IMG/VR virus record: IMGVR_UViG_2563366941_000005
DNA: 34,670 nucleotides
Reading direction: 5' to 3' (one strand)
From: a virus
Lineage: Duplodnaviria > Heunggongvirae > Uroviricota > Caudoviricetes
Shown here: positions 75-25,147 of the stretch, in pieces
How positions within the stretch are numbered: the first letter of the stretch is position 1
Layout of the letters: every line of letters begins with the position of its first letter
Translations under genes and position numbers: made by a program
The notes under the pieces: generated by a model
Told to the model about the DNA's origin: nothing
What the model saw: the letters and a program-made list of their open reading frames with translations, nothing else
Database searches by the model: none

Positions 75-1361
75 TTACCCCACTTTCTTATGGGGCATAC
101 ATGGGACACTTTCAGATAGTCTTTTGTTAAGGAGTTCTATCTGTTCGTGATTGTTGTCTTTCATCCATGCTCCGTAAACATTGAATACCATTTGTGCGTT
201 TGTGTGGCCCATCTGGCTTGCGATAAAACTAGGATTAGCTCCAGCGGCAAGTGACCAGCATGCATAAGTATGCCTGGATTGGTACGATTTTCTGTGTCTC
301 AGACCTGCGCGTTTTAAGATACTTGTCCATGACTCCCTGATGGAGTCAACCTTATAGTGCGGTCCGGAAAACTGCCGCTGTTTTATTACCTGAGGACTAA
401 AAACAAAAGTGCATTTATGCACAGTACTTCTCCCATATTCCCTCTGCTTTACCTCTACAGAATGTTGCTTTCCAAGCATGGTCATTTCCGCCTGACTTTT
501 AAGAGCATCAATAGCTGGTTGAACCAGATGAATTGTCCTTCCGGTGCCAGCATCGGTTTTTGGTGGAGTGAATTCGCCAAGTTTTGTATAATTCCTACGG
601 ATGGTTATAGTCCTTGCTTTAAGATCTATATCTTCCCATGCCAGCGATACCAGCTCCCCGTGACGAATACCCGTGTATACAGCGAGAATCCACAGGTTTT
701 TTGTTTGTTGATGACGGCAAGCCTCAATAAAACGAATAAATTCGTCACGGGTGAGAGGATCTGGTTTTACCTTGGACTTTTTTAAGGGTGCCAGACCGTT
801 AAATGGGTTTCCTGAGGTATAACCATTATCTGTTGCAAATTGAAACATTCCAGCTATGGTTGTCATATAGTAGTTTACTGTGACCACTGAGCGCCCTTTT
901 ATGGAAGAAATCTTTCCATTAGAAAGCTTTTGGTAACCGGTCAACAAATCTCTCCTTGCGAAAAGTAAATCCTCTTTTGTTATGGATGAAACCAGTTTTT
1001 TCTCACCCAACATAGGCAACATGTTTTTAATTACTGACTGGTAACGATTAAGTGCATTCGCACAAATCTCAATTTTCTTAAGGTCCAACCATTTTTCCGA
1101 AAGTGCCTTAACGGTTATCTCTCTTTTTCCCAGACCAAAGTGTTTCAGGTTAGGGGAATTAGGGAACTGTGTGGCGTAGTCGAAACACCCCATTCTGATT
1201 GCAAAACAAACGGAAGTGCGAAGTTCACCTGCGATCTTCCGGTTTTTGGCGGTGTCAGGAACACCGAGGTTTTCTCTGACACGTTTGCCATTATAGTGAA
1301 ACCATATACGGAGTGATCCTCCATGGTTTTCAACGCCTGTCGGGTATGATACGTTACTCAT
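75..1361 (-). CDS. int: Phage integrase, tyrosine recombinase with lambda-Int-like N-terminal arm-binding region
   Basis: 428-aa ORF; C-terminal catalytic region with conserved R..H..R..Y context (HTYACW, GHTNAQM, VYGAWM); GGGAGG RBS 7 nt upstream of ATG at 1361; first gene at prophage left end. Confidence 0.9.
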   Translation of the reverse strand: MSNVSYPTGVENHGGSLRIWFHYNGKRVRENLGVPDTAKNRKIAGELRTSVCFAIRMGCFDYATQFPNSPNLKHFGLGKREITVKALSEKWLDLKKIEICANALNRYQSVIKNMLPMLGEKKLVSSITKEDLLFARRDLLTGYQKLSNGKISSIKGRSVVTVNYYMTTIAGMFQFATDNGYTSGNPFNGLAPLKKSKVKPDPLTRDEFIRFIEACRHQQTKNLWILAVYTGIRHGELVSLAWEDIDLKARTITIRRNYTKLGEFTPPKTDAGTGRTIHLVQPAIDALKSQAEMTMLGKQHSVEVKQREYGRSTVHKCTFVFSPQVIKQRQFSGPHYKVDSIRESWTSILKRAGLRHRKSYQSRHTYACWSLAAGANPSFIASQMGHTNAQMVFNVYGAWMKDNNHEQIELLNKRLSESVPCMPHKKVG

Positions 1362-2114: not shown

Positions 2115-3062
2115 TCACCCCTGCGGCGGTTCTGGTAGAGGCATCCAGAACAAGGCGTTCCCTAACCACGATAAAGTGCCGTCGCTCAACTCCACGTATT
2201 CCCCTTGCACCTGGCCTGCCATATACTCACCGTGCTTTGAATAAATTAAAATCCAATCATCTTGATCGGGCATTCGCTCACTACAGCTTATCCAACCATC
2301 CGGAGTTACCGGATAGTTGCCAGCCAGTCTACGCAAAACAGCCTTAACCGCCTCAATACGGTCATCATCGCAACTTTCCAGCGTATCTATGCGATCGAGC
2401 ATGATGATGGCGTTATCAATATCAGGATTGCCGGTCCACTCATTACCGCGATTGGATTCGGCAGCCTGGTTGCCGTGTACTGTTTGATTCTCGGCTTTAC
2501 CCAGTCTGTCGTCGCTGCATGAATGCCCTTCCAGCCAGGCCAATGCTTGTCGCATGAAATACGCAATATGTTTGCCGTGGTAATCGTCTTCATCGATGTG
2601 AAAAGCGATACTGCGGATGTATTCAATTGCGTTTTCAATGGCCTCCGGCGTTATCGGCGCTGACATATTTTGATTTTGGAGTGCCAAGACGCGGCTGGCA
2701 TCCTCAACATCTTTAACTGCATCTGCGCAGTAGTTATAGCGATTGCACTCCACTAACTTCTGCTTGAGATTTTCAATTGCTTGCGCGACATCAGCCTGTA
2801 TTACCGGCACAGGCGGAGCGGCGTACAAAGCAATCAAACTGCCAATTGTTCGCTCTTTCGCATCATCCAGACATGGGTAGGCCGGGGTAGATACAATTGC
2901 ATTATCTCTAAGGTCGTCAGCCATTACCCATGCCACCGGCTCTGCTTCCAGCGAGGCTAACGCTATTTCATAAGCCCGGCGCTCAATATTGTCTCTCACG
3001 TCCAGGCTGCCTATGCGCTCTTTGATTTCTTTAATCAGTTCTTTGTCGGTAAAAGTGCTCAT
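2115..3062 (-). CDS. Phage protein with C-terminal DUF551-like domain
   Basis: ORF ending WMPLPEPPQG (typical DUF551 terminus); start moved to ATG at 3062 with AAGGAG SD 6 nt upstream; N-terminus paralogous to the next gene. Confidence 0.75.
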   Translation of the reverse strand: MSTFTDKELIKEIKERIGSLDVRDNIERRAYEIALASLEAEPVAWVMADDLRDNAIVSTPAYPCLDDAKERTIGSLIALYAAPPVPVIQADVAQAIENLKQKLVECNRYNYCADAVKDVEDASRVLALQNQNMSAPITPEAIENAIEYIRSIAFHIDEDDYHGKHIAYFMRQALAWLEGHSCSDDRLGKAENQTVHGNQAAESNRGNEWTGNPDIDNAIIMLDRIDTLESCDDDRIEAVKAVLRRLAGNYPVTPDGWISCSERMPDQDDWILIYSKHGEYMAGQVQGEYVELSDGTLSWLGNALFWMPLPEPPQG

Positions 3063-3063
3063 A

Positions 3064-3513
3064 TCAATCTCCTTTGGTACCAATGTTTACAGCCTGGCAA
3101 GCCTCTTTGAGCACCCAGTCAACAGCGTCTTTCCATGCTCCGGTTTCGACTGGCGGATTTTCACGCTTAACCTGTTCATAGAAGCGCACTGCTTTAATCA
3201 ATCCTTCTGGTGTCAGTGGCACAGGTGGAGCGGTGAATAACGCCTGAATTTCATAGTTCGGCCTGTCGTTGCAATCCTCTTTTGTCGGTACATATTTCCA
3301 GTCACCAACCCACTGCTCCCCCTGAGAGTCCGTAACGCCTTTTTTCACATAGCGATATCGCCACGCTATCGGCTCTGCTTCCAGCGATGCCTGTGCGATA
3401 CGAAACACATTGGCAAGCAGGCTGTCTGAGGATTGGTTATCGTGCGCTGGGTCGCTCAGGAAGCCATTGATGAATGATTTAATCTTCGAGCTTTCTCTGG
3501 TAATAGTGGTCAT
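3064..3513 (-). CDS. Hypothetical phage protein, N-terminal paralog of the DUF551 protein
   Basis: 149-aa ORF sharing ASLEAEP[IV]AW and APPVP motifs with 2115..3062; AAGGAG SD; stop overlaps the next SD. Confidence 0.7.
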   Translation of the reverse strand: MTTITRESSKIKSFINGFLSDPAHDNQSSDSLLANVFRIAQASLEAEPIAWRYRYVKKGVTDSQGEQWVGDWKYVPTKEDCNDRPNYEIQALFTAPPVPLTPEGLIKAVRFYEQVKRENPPVETGAWKDAVDWVLKEACQAVNIGTKGD

Positions 3514-7730: not shown

Positions 7731-8405
7731 TTAGGCCTTTATTTTGTATCTTCTTGGTTTTCCTGAGAAAATTACTGTACCAATTATAGAGCAATTACCG
7801 TTAATCTTAATGTAAGGCTCAGGCCAGTTTGGGTTTAATGCTTTGAGATAACGCTGTGTTCCATCTTCTATCAATCGCTTGAAGGTGGTTTCGCCTGTAT
7901 CGTGCATCAATGCAATAACGTCGTCACCGTGGCAGGCAGGGACTTCGGGATCAACAAAAATCATGTCTCCCGGGCGGTACTCATCAATCATTGAATCACC
8001 AATCACCCGCAAGATATAAGTCATTTCGCCACAGGGTACAGGGCAGGGATAAGTTTCTGCTGTGCTCAAATCAACCTCAGAATAGCCAACTTCTTTCCAT
8101 GCTCCGGCCTGTACCCATGATATGACAGGGACTAACGTTATTTGTTTGTTAGTAATTGAAACATCAGGTTTTTTTGTGATGTTTGTTGTCTGGTGTTCTT
8201 GATCAAGCCATCCGACAGGCAGGTCGAAACATTTTTCGATGTGCCGTGCCATGCTGTCACCGATATTTTTAGTAGCACCATCTCCCATAAACCTGCTGGT
8301 CTGGGTTGGCTCGCGATCAATCATGGTGGCAAAGGAAGAATTCCCGCCAACACCATCTCTCAGTTTTCTGGCGTTAGACCGCCGGATGTCATGGACTGTT
8401 TTCAT
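7731..8405 (-). CDS. cI: CI-like prophage repressor (N-terminal HTH, C-terminal S24 LexA-like peptidase domain)
   Basis: 224-aa ORF; C-terminal VIGDSM...GD..FVD...K signature of S24 autopeptidase; divergent from the cro-like gene; no SD upstream, consistent with a leaderless transcript. Confidence 0.85.
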   Translation of the reverse strand: MKTVHDIRRSNARKLRDGVGGNSSFATMIDREPTQTSRFMGDGATKNIGDSMARHIEKCFDLPVGWLDQEHQTTNITKKPDVSITNKQITLVPVISWVQAGAWKEVGYSEVDLSTAETYPCPVPCGEMTYILRVIGDSMIDEYRPGDMIFVDPEVPACHGDDVIALMHDTGETTFKRLIEDGTQRYLKALNPNWPEPYIKINGNCSIIGTVIFSGKPRRYKIKA

Positions 8406-19245: not shown

Positions 19246-21207
19246 ATGGCATTTAAACACTATGACGTGGTCAGGGCGGCATCGCCGTCAGACCTTGCGA
19301 AACGACTGACACAAAAACTGAAGGAGGGGTGGCAGCCATTTGGCAGTCCGGTGGCCATCACGCCTTATACCCTGATGCAGGCCATTGCGGCGGAAGGTGA
19401 TGTCACCACACCTGTGGTGGTGAAGCCGTCGGATGGAGAAGGCGCAGTTATCAGCACTACCAGCAACCCGGAGTATTACTTTGTTGTTGCCCTGGCCGGG
19501 CAGTCAAACGGTATGGCGTATGGTGAAGGGCTTCCGCTGCCGGAGACATATGACCGTCCGGACCCGCGTATTAAACAGCTGGCGCGTCGCAGCACTGTCA
19601 CGCCGGGTGGTGCGTCCTGTAACTACAATGACATTATTCCTGCGGACCACTGCCTGCATGATGTTCAGGATTTGAGTAAGTTTTCACACCCGAAAGCCAG
19701 CGCAGCTCAGTATGGATGCGTGGGGCAGGGATTACATATCGCGAAGAAATTGTTGTCGTTTATTCCGGCGAATGCCGGTATTCTTCTGGTTCCGTGCTGC
19801 CGTGGTGGTTCTGCATTTTTGGCGGGCGATGAAGGTACCTTCAGCGAATCCACCGGCGCAAGCGAGACCTCGGCACGCTGGGGTGTAGATAAGCCACTGT
19901 ACAAGGACCTGCTTACCCGTACTCAGGCCGCACTGAAGGCCAACCCTAAAAATATTCTGCTTGCAGTGGTCTGGATGCAGGGCGAGTTTGATTTGAAACA
20001 GGGTGCATACGCCACTCAGCCGGGGCTGTTTGATTCCATGGTGGAAAAATATCGTTCTGACCTGTCGGAATTCGGAGGTCAGTGTCTCGGGGGCTCTCCG
20101 TCATCAGTTCCCTGGATTTGTGGCGACACGACCTACTACTGGAAGCAGACTTATTCTTCGCAATACGATGCGGTGTATGGTGCATATAAGACGAAATCCG
20201 CAAAAAAAATCTTCTTTGTGCCGTTTATGACGGATGAAAACGGGCGAAATGTGGGTACCAACGAGCCGTCAGAAGATCCGGATGTTGCGGATATTGGGTA
20301 TTACGGAGCCGGTGGTCGAACGGACGCCAAAACCTGGACGACGGCTGACCGTAAAACGCATTTTGGATCATGGGCACGTCGTGGGATTATTTCCGACCGT
20401 CTGGCAACGGCGATTCTTGTGCATGCCGGGAGAACCGCTGAATTCATTACCGGAAAACAGCCTGATACGGTGAAGCCCACCGGACCTTCCGGTGAAGGTA
20501 CGGAGAGAGAGCCGGAAGGTCCGGTCAGTAACCGAACCCTGATGAGTCTGCTGGCGTCCGGCGAAGACCTGGCATCACAGGGCTGGCGCTATTATCACAA
20601 ACCGGCGAGCGGAGACAATGTTAACAAAAACATTGCTGAAGCGGTGGTCAGTGATGCGGGGGCTACGGGAGGTAAGGCCCTGCAACTGAATAAACCGGAA
20701 AACCACATCTGGTTTCTGGAGCATGATGCAGCCGGGCAGGGGGCAGAGTTGCTGAAGAAAGGAGGACGTGTGAGCGTACGGTTTAAGTTGCCGGGTTCAC
20801 TGGTGCCGAATCAGTTTGCCCTGGGCATTTACTGGCAGTTGTCGTCCCTGCCGGAGGGAGTGACGCTGGCAGAGGAAGGCAACGACATGCTGATGTCCTT
20901 CTTCCTGCAGACGGATGCGACGAACCTGAACGCGATGCACCACAAGAAGCCGAATGCGAAGCTGGATACGTTCGGGGTCTTTGATAACGGATGGCACACA
21001 CTGGCTTTTGAGTTTGCCGGAAACAACAGCATTCAGGTGACGCCGGTACTGGATGAGAAACGGGGGACGCCGTTCACACTGGTGAAATCTCCGGCATCAG
21101 GGGCGGCGGACAAACTGCAACTGACAGGCATATCAAAGGCGGCGACATATACGCTGCTGATTGACAGTGTGAAGGTGGAAGTGAACAACGCGGATGCCGC
21201 GGCATGA
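19246..21207 (+). CDS. Prophage sialate O-acetylesterase (NanS-p-like; SGNH/SASA hydrolase)
   Basis: 653-aa ORF; GQSN catalytic motif (VALAGQSNGMAYGEG); GGGAGG SD; located between the tRNAs and the lysis genes as in Stx-phage-like prophages. Confidence 0.75.
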   Translation: MAFKHYDVVRAASPSDLAKRLTQKLKEGWQPFGSPVAITPYTLMQAIAAEGDVTTPVVVKPSDGEGAVISTTSNPEYYFVVALAGQSNGMAYGEGLPLPETYDRPDPRIKQLARRSTVTPGGASCNYNDIIPADHCLHDVQDLSKFSHPKASAAQYGCVGQGLHIAKKLLSFIPANAGILLVPCCRGGSAFLAGDEGTFSESTGASETSARWGVDKPLYKDLLTRTQAALKANPKNILLAVVWMQGEFDLKQGAYATQPGLFDSMVEKYRSDLSEFGGQCLGGSPSSVPWICGDTTYYWKQTYSSQYDAVYGAYKTKSAKKIFFVPFMTDENGRNVGTNEPSEDPDVADIGYYGAGGRTDAKTWTTADRKTHFGSWARRGIISDRLATAILVHAGRTAEFITGKQPDTVKPTGPSGEGTEREPEGPVSNRTLMSLLASGEDLASQGWRYYHKPASGDNVNKNIAEAVVSDAGATGGKALQLNKPENHIWFLEHDAAGQGAELLKKGGRVSVRFKLPGSLVPNQFALGIYWQLSSLPEGVTLAEEGNDMLMSFFLQTDATNLNAMHHKKPNAKLDTFGVFDNGWHTLAFEFAGNNSIQVTPVLDEKRGTPFTLVKSPASGAADKLQLTGISKAATYTLLIDSVKVEVNNADAAA

Positions 21208-21358
21208 TAAAAAAAGGCCGCCAGCAATGAAGGAAAGGGATGAACTGTGTCCACTACATGAATGCTGGCGGCTGGTAAAACGACCACGATGACACCGAAG
21301 TTTGCGATATTTTTCTACAAAAATAAGTAAATCATGTCAACTATCACGGTGAGAAACC

Positions 21359-21541
21359 ATGACATTTCTGAACCAGTTAATGCTGTACTTCTGTACGGCA
21401 GTCTGTGTTATGTATCTTCTTTCGGGTGGGTACAGGGCAGTGCGCGATTTCTGGCGCAGGCAGATTGATAAAAGGGCCGCTGAGAGAATCAGCGCCAGTC
21501 AGTCAGCCGGAAGCAAACCCGAAGATCCGCTCATTCCGTAG
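21359..21541 (+). CDS. Small membrane protein (60 aa)
   Basis: N-terminal hydrophobic helix LMLYFCTAVCVMYLLSGG; GGTGAGAAA SD. Confidence 0.45.
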   Translation: MTFLNQLMLYFCTAVCVMYLLSGGYRAVRDFWRRQIDKRAAERISASQSAGSKPEDPLIP

Positions 21542-21578
21542 TCACTTTCTTGACAACACCTTTCAACGAGAAAATCCC

Positions 21579-21848
21579 ATGTCAGAAATCACATCCCTGG
21601 TCACTGCTGAGGCAGTGAAGGAAGTCCTGCGCTCTGAAGAAGTCCTGAGCGCACTGAAACAGAAACTCCGCCAGAACCTTGAGGCGCGTCTTGATGCAGA
21701 AGTGGATGCCATTCTGGATGAGCTGCTGGGCGTACCAGCGGTTCCGGAGCCGGAAGGCATTGCGGATGACAGTACTGTTTCAGATGGCGTCGGGTCTCAG
21801 CCTGACGGTAGTGAAGAGCCTCAGCCTGACGGCGAAATGATGATGTAA
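21579..21848 (+). CDS. Small acidic hypothetical protein (89 aa)
   Basis: Internal ATG of tracked ORF 21405..21848; weak SD. Confidence 0.4.
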   Translation: MSEITSLVTAEAVKEVLRSEEVLSALKQKLRQNLEARLDAEVDAILDELLGVPAVPEPEGIADDSTVSDGVGSQPDGSEEPQPDGEMMM

Positions 21849-21923
21849 CCATGCGCAGGGGGTGTCGGTGTGAGCTGATGCCCCACTTGTTGTTGTGAGC
21901 TTCCGGATTGCGGGAGACGGGGT

Positions 21924-22139
21924 ATGTACCAGATGGAAAAAATCACAACAGGTGTGTCATACACCACGTCAGCGGTGGGAACGGGCTACTGGTTCCTGCA
22001 GTTGCTGGACAGGGTTTCCCCGTCTCAGTGGGCGGCAATAGGCGTGCTGGGGAGTCTGCTGTTTGGGCTGCTGACATATCTGACTAACCTGTATTTCAAA
22101 ATCAGAGAGGACCGTCGTAAGGCTGCACGGGGAGAGTAA
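21924..22139 (+). CDS. S: Holin, pinholin type (phage 21 S-like)
   Basis: 71 aa, two TM segments, dual-start motif MYQMEK, C-terminal [13 protein letters not shown]; precedes a SAR endolysin. Confidence 0.8.
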
Positions 22140-22143
22140 TTCA

Positions 22144-22488
22144 ATGACTCAAAACTATGAACTGATTGTGAAAGGGATCCGCAATTTTGAGAATAAAGTT
22201 ACGGTAACTTTAGCGTTACGGGACAAAAAACGCTTTGACGGTGAAATTTTTGACCTGGACATCTCGCTGGACCGTGTTGAAGGTGCCGCGCTGGAGTTTT
22301 ATGAGGCAGCAGCCAGAAGGAGCATCAGACAGGTCTTCCTGGATGTTGCTGCCGGGTTATGTGAAGGGGATGAGCAGTCGCCGGAAAAGCGCCCCGTAAT
22401 TTTAGAGGCGCAGGATGTGTTGATAACCTACAGAGGAAAACTACCGGGAATAATTACGGGTTCTCTGAAGAGTCCGCCGAAATGGTAA
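22144..22488 (+). CDS. DUF1327 / YdfR-like protein inserted between holin and endolysin
   Basis: 114-aa ORF 4 nt after the holin stop; family assignment is from memory. Confidence 0.5.
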   Translation: MTQNYELIVKGIRNFENKVTVTLALRDKKRFDGEIFDLDISLDRVEGAALEFYEAAARRSIRQVFLDVAAGLCEGDEQSPEKRPVILEAQDVLITYRGKLPGIITGSLKSPPKW

Positions 22489-22726
22489 TTTTACCAGCAT
22501 ATTTTTCATCCAGTAATACAGCAAGCCGCCTGAAAGAGTCTTGTTGTTCCTGAGACCATTTGGGATTGCATGATTCAAACTGGATTGATGCCAGCGTTGA
22601 TTGCATCTGTTCCCTTGGAATTGAGAATGCCAGATATGAGAAGGCGACGGTAAGGGTATTCACGTCTTCCCGAAGCCTGGAAATGCTGTCGAGCAACTCC
22701 TGTAGAGAAATGGTGTTATTGTCCAT
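22454..22726 (-). CDS. Hypothetical protein (90 aa), antisense to the lysis cassette
   Basis: Protein-like translation in an AT-richer segment; converges on and overlaps the YdfR-like gene by 35 bp. Confidence 0.35.
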   Translation of the reverse strand: MDNNTISLQELLDSISRLREDVNTLTVAFSYLAFSIPREQMQSTLASIQFESCNPKWSQEQQDSFRRLAVLLDEKYAGKITISADSSENP

Positions 22727-22831
22727 AAATAATCCTCATGATTGTATTGACCTGTTAGCAGCCTGAGGCAACAGGCTGGAACTGATAAACATATCCAGGG
22801 CTCAGAAACCGATAAATCCTGATAAATATCC

Positions 22832-23365
22832 ATGAACGCAAAAATCAGATACGGCCTGTCGGCTGCCGTTCTGGCGCTGATTGCCGCTGGTGCGCCTGCG
22901 CCTGACATTCTCGACCAGTTTCTGGATGAAAAGGAAGGTAACCACACCACGGCATACCGTGATGGCGCGGGTATCTGGACCATCTGCCGCGGTGCCATCC
23001 TGGTGGATGGCAAACCTGTCGTTCCGGGCATGAAGTTGTCGAAGGAAAAATGCGACCGGGTTAACGCCATTGAGCGTGATAAGGCGCTGGCATGGGTGGA
23101 GAAAAACATCAGAGTGCCATTGAGTGAACCCCAGAAAGCGGGGATCGCGTCATTCTGTCCGTACAACATTGGTCCCGGTAAGTGTTTCCCGTCGACGTTT
23201 TATAAACGAATTAATGCAGGTGATCGCAGGGGAGCGTGTGAGGCGATTCGCTGGTGGATTAAGGACGGTGGCAGAGACTGCCGTATCCGCTCAAATAACT
23301 GTTATGGTCAGGTATCCCGTCGTGACCAGGAGAGCGCGCTGGCGTGCTGGGGAATCGACAGATAA
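22832..23365 (+). CDS. R: SAR endolysin (T4-lysozyme family with N-terminal signal-anchor-release domain)
   Basis: N-terminal hydrophobic SAR segment YGLSAAVLALIAAGA; catalytic E-8aa-D-5aa-T triad (EGNHTTAYRDGAGIWT). Confidence 0.85.
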   Translation: MNAKIRYGLSAAVLALIAAGAPAPDILDQFLDEKEGNHTTAYRDGAGIWTICRGAILVDGKPVVPGMKLSKEKCDRVNAIERDKALAWVEKNIRVPLSEPQKAGIASFCPYNIGPGKCFPSTFYKRINAGDRRGACEAIRWWIKDGGRDCRIRSNNCYGQVSRRDQESALACWGIDR

Positions 23366-23460
23366 GCAGAATATTTTGCTGAAAAATAAGGTATGGCCAC
23401 GCGGGCGGATAACACGAAATCCTGCGAACTGGCGAAACGTAAGTGAATAAAAGTAAAAAC

Positions 23461-23494
23461 CCCGTTTGTTGGCACCAAGCGGGGTTTTGTGTTT
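23461..23494 (+). terminator. Terminator-like hairpin between endolysin and Rz
   Basis: Stem CCCGTTTG, loop TTGGCAC, stem CAAGCGGG, then GTTTTGTGTTT. Confidence 0.45.
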
Positions 23495-23524
23495 CCTGAC
23501 TCCGGAAAAGTCAAAGGAGAAAGT

Positions 23525-23662
23525 GTGTTTGATTTTAGCAAACTGATTCGGGAGATTCGAGTGATGGCTGAAAAATTATCCACCTGGAAGTTCATTCTTA
23601 TCTGGCTGGTGTTTGTGATTATGGCCTCCGGTTATTTCATCGGTCAGATACGCTGGTGGTGA
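23525..23662 (+). CDS. Small hydrophobic ORF (45 aa) between endolysin and Rz
   Basis: GTG at 23525 with AAAGGAGAAAG SD; one predicted TM segment [20 protein letters not shown]; stop overlaps the Rz start. Confidence 0.3.
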
Positions 23663-23663
23663 A

Positions 23664-24131
23664 ATGAACCGCGTACTGTGCGTGGTCATCATTGCCCTGC
23701 TGGTGGCCTGTGGTGCGCTTAGTCTGGGGCTGAATCATTACCGTGATAACGCCATTACCTACAAAGCCCAGCGCGACAAAAATGTCAGAGAACTGAAGCT
23801 GGCGAACGCGGCAATTACTGACATGCAGATGCGTCAGCGTGATGTTGCTGCGCTCGATGCAAAATACACGAAGGAGTTAGCTGATGCGAAAGCTGAAAAT
23901 GAAACTCTTCGCGCTGACGTTGCCGCTGGTCGTAAGCGCCTGCGTATCAACGCCACCTGTCCAGGTCCCGTGCGTGAAGCCACCGGCACCGCCCGCGTGG
24001 ATAATGCAACCGGCCCCCAACTGGCAGACACCGTTACACGGGATTATTTCACCCTCAGAGAGCGGCTGATGACGATGCAGAAGCAACTGGAAGGGGCGCA
24101 GGAATATATCCGTACTCAGTGCCTGAAATAA
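23664..24131 (+). CDS. Rz: Rz i-spanin
   Basis: N-terminal TM anchor then coiled-coil periplasmic domain; follows the endolysin; Rz1 embedded in +1 frame. Confidence 0.8.
23884..24069 (+). CDS. Rz1: Rz1 o-spanin lipoprotein (embedded in Rz)
   Basis: Lipobox LVVSAC and proline-rich mature region, wholly inside Rz in another frame. Confidence 0.75.
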
Positions 24132-24481
24132 GTTTTGTTGATGCGCCGTATCGTCGCTGTATTCCCTCATTAACAGAGACCGCAGCCCGACAGGGAGACT
24201 CCTCTGCGCGAGTGTGCGGGGATAATCAAAAACGATACACACCGGGGTTTACCGCGTTAACGGAGCGCGGCGTTGTCCCCTCATAGTCGCCTGTCCGGTG
24301 CGATGGTGGAAGAAACCGGATGTTTATCACTATTAATTGATGACACAGAAATGGATTCATTGAATTTCAGCACGTTTTTGTATTCGTGTTATTGAACATC
24401 TGTTTATTTTACTTTTAACATATTGATAATAAAAAGAGCTGTAAATCTTTAGATGAGTCGATTTTGTCCGGGGAAGTTCAA

Positions 24482-24622
24482 ATGGATTTTATGCTGACGG
24501 TTTCTGGTGTGGTTATCCTGTCCATTGCTTATACTGCAGATAAATATGGCTGCCATTTGTTATCACGTATTGGCGCTTATTGTTCGTTGATGCTGATTTT
24601 CTCGTCGCTTTTTTTTGAGTAA
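24482..24622 (+). CDS. Small hydrophobic ORF (46 aa) in the AT-rich island
   Basis: MDFMLTVSGVVILSIAYTADKYGCHLLSRIGAYCSLMLIFSSLFFE; weak SD; below ORF-track cutoff. Confidence 0.25.
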   Translation: MDFMLTVSGVVILSIAYTADKYGCHLLSRIGAYCSLMLIFSSLFFE

Positions 24623-24754
24623 GTTATATTAATTATAACAAATAATTTTCTGTGTTATTTTTTCAGGCTATCCCGTCAGAGGGGAAGCCTGTACTGCCGG
24701 GGAGCGAATGGAAAACTGATGTGTCCGGTAACTGCGTGTTCTGTGAACACCATG

Positions 24755-24940
24755 TTACTTAATTATGTAATTCATACCCGAACTCTCTGTTGACAGCCTT
24801 CTTCTGCAGGCTTCAATAACCCACGCTGAAAAGTTTCCTGAACCTTTCAGATCAAGAGCGATGTTAATTTGTTCAATCATCTGGTTTGGAAATCGGATGT
24901 TGCGGGTTGTTGTTCTGCGGGTTCTGTTCTTTGATGACAT
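24755..24940 (-). CDS. Small ribbon-helix-helix-like DNA-binding protein (61 aa)
   Basis: Basic N-terminus then RFPNQMIEQINIALDLKGSGNFSAWVIEACRRRL, consistent with a beta-strand/helix/helix pattern. Confidence 0.45.
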   Translation of the reverse strand: MSSKNRTRRTTTRNIRFPNQMIEQINIALDLKGSGNFSAWVIEACRRRLSTESSGMNYIIK

Positions 24941-25147
24941 AATGTTTCCCCATATTCAGTGTTGCTGATTTGTATTATCTGAAGTTGCTTTTACGTTAAT
25001 TTGACGCAGATCAATTAATACGATACCTGCGTCATAATTGATTATTTCTCGTGGTTTGATGGCGTACACACATGTTGTGATAAACCTTATATAGATGATA
25101 ATCATTATCATTTTCGTGGGTCCTTTCCGGCGATCCGACCGGTTACG

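Follow-up and report, generated by a model that had tools for sequence, protein, structure and literature searches.

The 90-aa open reading frame that lies antisense between the holin and endolysin genes, referred to here as X, is probably an independent accessory gene (a moron) which was recombined into a hot slot of a phage-21-type lysis cassette, where it separates ydfR from the endolysin gene. The window, namely the whole stretch of 34,670 nucleotides that was analysed, is a lambdoid prophage, and the features relevant to this study are collected in Table 1. X fits the definition of a lambdoid moron given in PMC2629481; it is absent from close relatives at the same position, its junctions are sharp, and its base composition deviates from that of the surrounding DNA.

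A sequence-only reading of the window had described a holin, a YdfR-like ORF, a convergent 90-aa ORF and an endolysin in this cassette, and that anatomy was confirmed. The gap between holin and endolysin, given there as about 700 bp, was measured as 692 bp from the holin stop to the lysozyme start, the overlap of 35 bp between the convergent ORFs was borne out, and the AT-richer patch proved to be real but modest, with a GC content of 0.435-0.47 at 22400-22899 versus 0.50-0.57 in both flanks. The region upstream of the holin (19246-21848) holds the usual late-region cargo of Stx phages in the order phrog_143 ORF, DUF1378 and DUF826, with the lysis genes next in line, and the phrog_143 ORF occupies the position of the annotated YjhS or SASA-family esterase genes of Stx2-phage 86 and BP-4795.

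Table 1. Coordinates of the lysis cassette, of X and of other landmarks in the window
Feature	Position	Strand	Basis
Integrase	75-1361	-	
CI-like repressor	7731-8405	-	
NanS-p/YjhS-like ORF, 653 aa	19246-21207		phrog_143 match and synteny
P21-type holin (class II, phage 21 S-type), 71 aa, dual Met1/Met4 start	21924-22139	+	Pfam PF04971 Phage_holin_2_1 'P21 holin S', E 9e-33; phrog_9876 and phrog_20 'holin'
YdfR-family (DUF1327) gene, 114 aa	22144-22488	+	Pfam PF07041, E 7e-43
ORF X, 90 aa (phrog_2411; UniRef name Ybl58)	22454-22726	-	
Convergent overlap of X and ydfR, 35 bp	22454-22488		
Inserted segment (moron), ~295 bp	22480-22775		DNA alignments and GC dip
Shine-Dalgarno GAGGA of X	22733-22737	-	Sequence
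Candidate weak promoter of X	22741-22771	-	Read from the sequence, inferred
Lysozyme R, 177 aa, hydrophobic N-terminal segment (SAR-like)	22832-23365	+	Pfam PF00959, E 1e-23; phrog_7
Rz spanin	23664-24131	+	Pfam PF03245, E 4e-51
Rz1 lipoprotein ORF embedded in Rz	23884-24069		ORF list

Comparative data argue that X is a genuine protein-coding gene under purifying selection at the protein level. The antisense ORF had been judged protein-like from its composition, and this judgement was upheld by the profile match and by the selection analysis. The homology search that had been proposed for the 90-aa product was conducted, and residues 1-90 of X matched positions 1-90 of the 90-position phrog_2411 profile with an E value of 1.1e-58, while a profile search returned 238 homologues; from a profile search of 1.8 billion proteins, two long repetitive proteins were discarded as spurious. 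Selection was assessed on five copies of 273 nt each, derived from the window, phage Chlobot, BL21, strain S88 and a locus adjacent to iha, which gave dN/dS values of 0.17-0.32 together with an excess of third-position changes, at dS values reaching 0.9-1.1. The frame of X was devoid of stop codons in all five copies, and every other frame was closed in at least one of them. One antisense frame also displayed low dN/dS, yet it contained stops in three of the five copies, and its low value is attributed to the fact that its codon phase is linked to the frame of X. The Shine-Dalgarno motif GAGGA, located 6 nt before the ATG of X, was kept in Chlobot, in S88 and in the iha-adjacent copy.

The insert DNA was carried by 1221 of the 5426 complete E. 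coli genomes scanned (about 22%), BL21 included, at 1354 places, and at least 1000 contigs encoded the exact protein, which in some entries bears the UniRef name 'Ybl58'. The copy of BL21 is 85% identical, and ST131-type strains possess the identical one. Frameshifted and truncated alleles circulate as well, and selection is thus not universal; such broken alleles are as expected for prophage cargo.

The interval between ydfR and R emerged as a defined recombination slot with sharp junctions, which harbors different reverse-oriented cargo in different phages. In phages vB_EcoS-640R1 and BP-4795, which otherwise share the same holin-ydfR-R cassette, the slot is empty and ydfR is directly followed by R. 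DNA alignment placed the left junction right after codon 112 of YdfR (...SLKxPP; window 22479/22480) and the right junction near window 22775, with about 55-60 nt left to the start codon of R; the 55 nt upstream of R were conserved whatever the slot contained. The slot of PhiR5_1 is occupied by a reverse small ORF of phrog_2572 and that of Stx2-phage 86 by a reverse small ORF of phrog_1853, and BLASTP gave no alignment between X and either of them, indicating unrelated proteins. All three slot occupants known here are reverse-oriented. In a collection of 50,697 phage records, 370 matched the cassette and just 3 encoded X; in E. coli, ydfR-like DNA was present at 8354 places in 4305 genomes, versus the 1354 places of the insert. 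Where X does occur, the order Rz-R-[X reversed]-ydfR-holin is constant, as observed in 80 of 80 loci among the best 80 of the 208 IMG/VR contigs that encode X. Direct repeats on either side of the insert, as site-specific insertion would leave them, were sought, and only chance matches of 8 nt turned up. By these comparisons X is dispensable for the cassette.

The C-terminus of YdfR varies along with the slot. The protein is conserved to codon 112 (...SLKSPP), and the insert supplies its final two codons (KW) and its stop; after codon 112 it ends with KW in the window, ESQP in 640R1 and LA in BP-4795. Longer forms were found in PhiR5_1 (locus 1743-2586) and Stx2-phage 86 (locus 1745-2875), which comprise 211 and 268 aa in total owing to extensions of about 100-155 aa. 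The two extensions differ from each other, yet both start with a similar (S/T)xLRSE linker, and each long form is followed by its own reverse small ORF, of phrog_2572 and phrog_1853, respectively.

The same junction accounts for the overlap of X with ydfR. The stop codon of X and its last 8 codons (SADSSENP, residues 83-90) fall to the left of the insertion junction and so correspond to the conserved 3' end of ydfR read in antisense. Residues 80-89 had pLDDT values below 50, were disordered in the model and were not conserved in the family. The overlap is a by-product of the junction, in which X reads into antisense ydfR until a stop codon is encountered, rather than a designed antisense interaction.

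The cassette is interrupted a second time, in the R-Rz interval (23366-23663), which contains a strong terminator-like hairpin (23456-23488) with a 13-bp stem followed by a T-rich tail, and a 57-aa ORF (23489-23662) with a GTG start, a C-terminal hydrophobic segment and a match to phrog_6632 (E 1e-29). In relatives this interval is either empty (640R1) or occupied by an ant gene (BP-4795 and Stx2-phage 86). About 600 bp downstream of Rz lies a reverse 61-aa ORF (24755-24940, minus strand) of phrog_949, the equivalent of which in phage 783R2 is annotated as DUF3950; relatives carry a reversed bor shortly after Rz.

The product of X has a mass of 10.2 kDa, a pI of 4.5 and a GRAVY of -0.43, and it is predicted to be a soluble, acidic three-helix protein. 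AlphaFold2, supplied with an alignment of 67 sequences, placed helices at residues 8-34, 38-52 and 59-76 with a mean pLDDT of 83, and the motifs ELLxxI, AFSYLxF, LE(S/A)QN and QxxFxxLA were common to 66 aligned homologues. Neither a transmembrane segment nor a signal peptide was detected, the highest Kyte-Doolittle hydropathy over 19 residues being 0.75. Pfam and NCBIfam contained no family that matched, the PADLOC defence models gave nothing at E <= 0.1, and comparison of the fold returned generic helical matches alone, none of which was informative. YibL, the best PDB candidate in a profile-based sequence search, was rejected as not credible at E 0.1. The family phrog_2411 itself has no functional annotation, all the source names returned were 'hypothetical' or 'uncharacterised', and the name 'ybl58' was nowhere found in a full-text search of the literature. 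For a protein this small, acidic and helical, the most plausible mode of action would be the binding of another protein.

Homologues of X persist in several contexts outside the lysis cassettes of E. coli prophages, and those of a Citrobacter prophage, the iha island, a plasmid and Serratia chromosomes all match phrog_2411. The iha-adjacent copy of E. coli F11 (locus 2946-3218) is intact, shares 72% nucleotide identity, and lies among IS remnants, divergent from the iha adhesin / siderophore-receptor gene. It keeps a degenerate remnant of the flank upstream of R, which implies that this copy descends from a lysis cassette and has outlived it. Another intact but diverged homologue is located downstream of an autotransporter gene on the IncF plasmid pE21845IncF (locus 2971-3249). 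In a Citrobacter freundii prophage, a homologue with 59% protein identity is situated just upstream of a holin of a different type (Phage_holin_2_3), among other reverse ORFs and likewise antisense to late genes.

More distant homologues of 89-97 aa, with 25-40% identity, were recovered from Serratia, Chimaeribacter, Sodalis, Acerihabitans, Biostraticola, Mixta, Pantoea, Erwinia, Winslowiella and Izhakiella. A genome scan based on an alignment of this chromosomal subgroup disclosed the order pyrC-dinI-X-bssS-solA in all 80 species genomes sampled, which represent at least 10 genera. The chromosomal branch of the family is a syntenic dinI-bssS gene in Yersiniaceae, Erwiniaceae and Sodalis-group bacteria. 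At these loci dinI has its LexA box, and a conserved intrinsic terminator separates it from X, which is preceded by about 100-180 nt of its own and by a strong Shine-Dalgarno sequence. SOS regulation of X was considered and rejected, the LexA box being found at dinI alone and CTG-N10-CAG preceding X in 23 of 77 loci at positions that are not conserved. The 286-bp dinI-bssS interval of E. coli K-12 contains no relic of X, so that E. coli would obtain this family solely via mobile elements, namely prophages, islands and plasmids; a search of the window for a dinI or bssS homologue found none. The dinI-X-bssS branch was absent from the annotations and papers retrieved and is modestly new, as is the defined ydfR-R slot.

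As regards transcription, a candidate promoter of X was recognized, which consists of TTGCCT (22771-22766), a 19-nt spacer and TACAAT (22746-22741) and matches the consensus weakly; a promoter and terminator scan called neither element for X. The candidate -10 hexamer is kept as TACAAT, GACAAT or TATAAT in homologues, with the perfect TATAAT in the iha-adjacent copy. The scan disclosed no intrinsic terminator after X on the minus strand until about 21965-21951, and with no terminator nearby, transcription of X could extend in antisense through ydfR towards S and into it. A perfect palindrome, CAGCCTG-N6-CAGGCTG (22759-22778), lies just upstream of the ribosome-binding site of X, overlaps the candidate -35 hexamer and is partly kept (GCCTG-N6-CAGGC) in Chlobot and S88. 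Its interpretation as an intrinsic terminator was discarded, for no T-run follows it on either strand; it could be a protein-binding site.

Taken as a moron, X would have been placed into the ydfR-R slot by recombination, and a weak promoter of its own would drive its transcription, chiefly in the lysogen and opposite to the Q-dependent late operon, as for lambda bor. Its product might then bind a host protein of stress or physiology rather than one concerned with lysis.

Several other explanations of X were weighed against this one. One of them, that the frame of X is open by chance in non-coding spacer DNA read from the antisense strand, gains from the abundance of short ORFs (51 with at least 30 aa within 4.5 kb) and from the lack of a matching Pfam family; it is contradicted by the full-length PHROG match, by the 238 homologues, which retain the conserved motifs down to 25-30% identity, by the dN/dS of about 0.2-0.3 and by the confident AlphaFold2 fold, and the comparative data refute it. 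Nor is X part of the holin-endolysin-spanin machinery: a transmembrane segment, a signal or SAR sequence and a lipobox were all lacking, and no PHROG or Pfam family of lysis proteins matched it. The suggestion of the sequence-only reading that an antisense gene inside the lysis operon could modulate lysis timing went unsupported. Selection acts on the protein sequence of X (dN/dS 0.17-0.32), which does not behave like an antisense RNA; its overlap lies away from the starts of S and R, and Rfam gave only chance matches below threshold across 21000-25000. A related possibility is that convergent transcription, through collision or through pairing with the late mRNA over ydfR and S, damps leaky expression of holin and endolysin in lysogens or delays lysis. 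The potential run of the X transcript into ydfR and S is in keeping with it, as are the reversed orientation of three unrelated slot occupants, which could mean that orientation in itself matters for the cassette, and the Citrobacter copy, itself antisense to the late operon; the ant moron of P22 offers a precedent for accidental modulation (PMC2629481). Against this stand the selection on the protein, an overlap that touches just the last 35 nt of ydfR and is an artefact of the junction, the majority of related cassettes, which work without the insert, and the homologues that persist far from lysis genes, at iha, on the IncF plasmid and at the dinI-X-bssS loci. Q-modified late transcription, as in lambda, is in addition highly processive. 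Control by convergent transcription is therefore considered unlikely.

The proximity of ydfR raises the question of a functional partnership. The YdfR of K-12 was reported in 2026 to bind the N-terminal catalytic half of RNase E (residues 1-598) in two-hybrid and co-purification experiments, residues 1-72 being sufficient, and to co-purify with RNA, which it may bind (PMC13232886). A DUF1327 gene between holin and endolysin may accordingly affect RNA decay in the host at a late stage of infection. A literature search for 'ydfR' together with 'holin' gave nothing, and one for 'DUF1327' gave a single incidental mention. X might be imagined as a functional counterpart to YdfR, such as an antagonist or immunity-like factor, given this reported activity, the variation of the YdfR C-terminus along with the slot occupant, and the arrangement in E. 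coli prophages, where X always adjoins and overlaps ydfR (according to the annotated features at the E. coli genome matches, and in 80 of 80 among the best 80 of the 208 viral contigs). However, the two genes do not strictly co-occur as an obligate module would: ydfR-like DNA is far commoner than X, four settings have X but no DUF1327 gene, namely the Citrobacter prophage, the iha island, the IncF plasmid and the 80 chromosomal loci, and the insert leaves the conserved portion of YdfR as it is. Such a partnership is accordingly regarded as very improbable. In a broader and more speculative proposal, the ydfR-R slot would be a dedicated docking site for lysogen-expressed reverse small genes, whose products or convergent transcription might restrain the pinholin and SAR-endolysin or act on YdfR and RNase E. 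This is held to be quite unlikely; if true, X would be a member of a new class of phage-borne modulators of lysis or RNA decay, borrowed from the dinI-X-bssS stress locus.

With the moron interpretation preferred, X is a routine element of this window, since morons abound in the late regions of lambdoid phages, and the view of the lysis cassette is unchanged. The analysis nevertheless links a prophage gene to a strictly syntenic chromosomal gene of other Enterobacterales, and BL21 or Serratia would afford a cheap genetic handle on what the X protein does.

Comparison with known systems places X among familiar elements, none of which it resembles in full. DinI and BssS, the chromosomal neighbours of X, share no sequence similarity with it, nor is X preceded by a conserved LexA box; their likeness is one of kind, all being small (80-95 aa), acidic, soluble proteins encoded by stand-alone genes. 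The bor gene of lambda and other lambdoid morons are likewise present in just some close relatives at one position, run against the late operon beside the lysis genes, and differ in base composition from their flanks. Bor is an outer-membrane lipoprotein with a serum-resistance phenotype, whereas X is predicted to be a soluble acidic helical protein; bor is reversed just after Rz in 640R1 and Stx2-phage 86, and thus follows the cassette, whereas X sits inside it between ydfR and R. With respect to the classical moron layout of promoter, gene and terminator, that of X is incomplete, no terminator being found after it. Finally, Stx and BP-4795-type phages carry the antirepressor gene ant in their R-Rz interval, which demonstrates that such cassettes tolerate foreign genes among their components; unlike X, which is reversed and unrelated in sequence, ant runs in the direction of the late operon and plays a known part in regulation.
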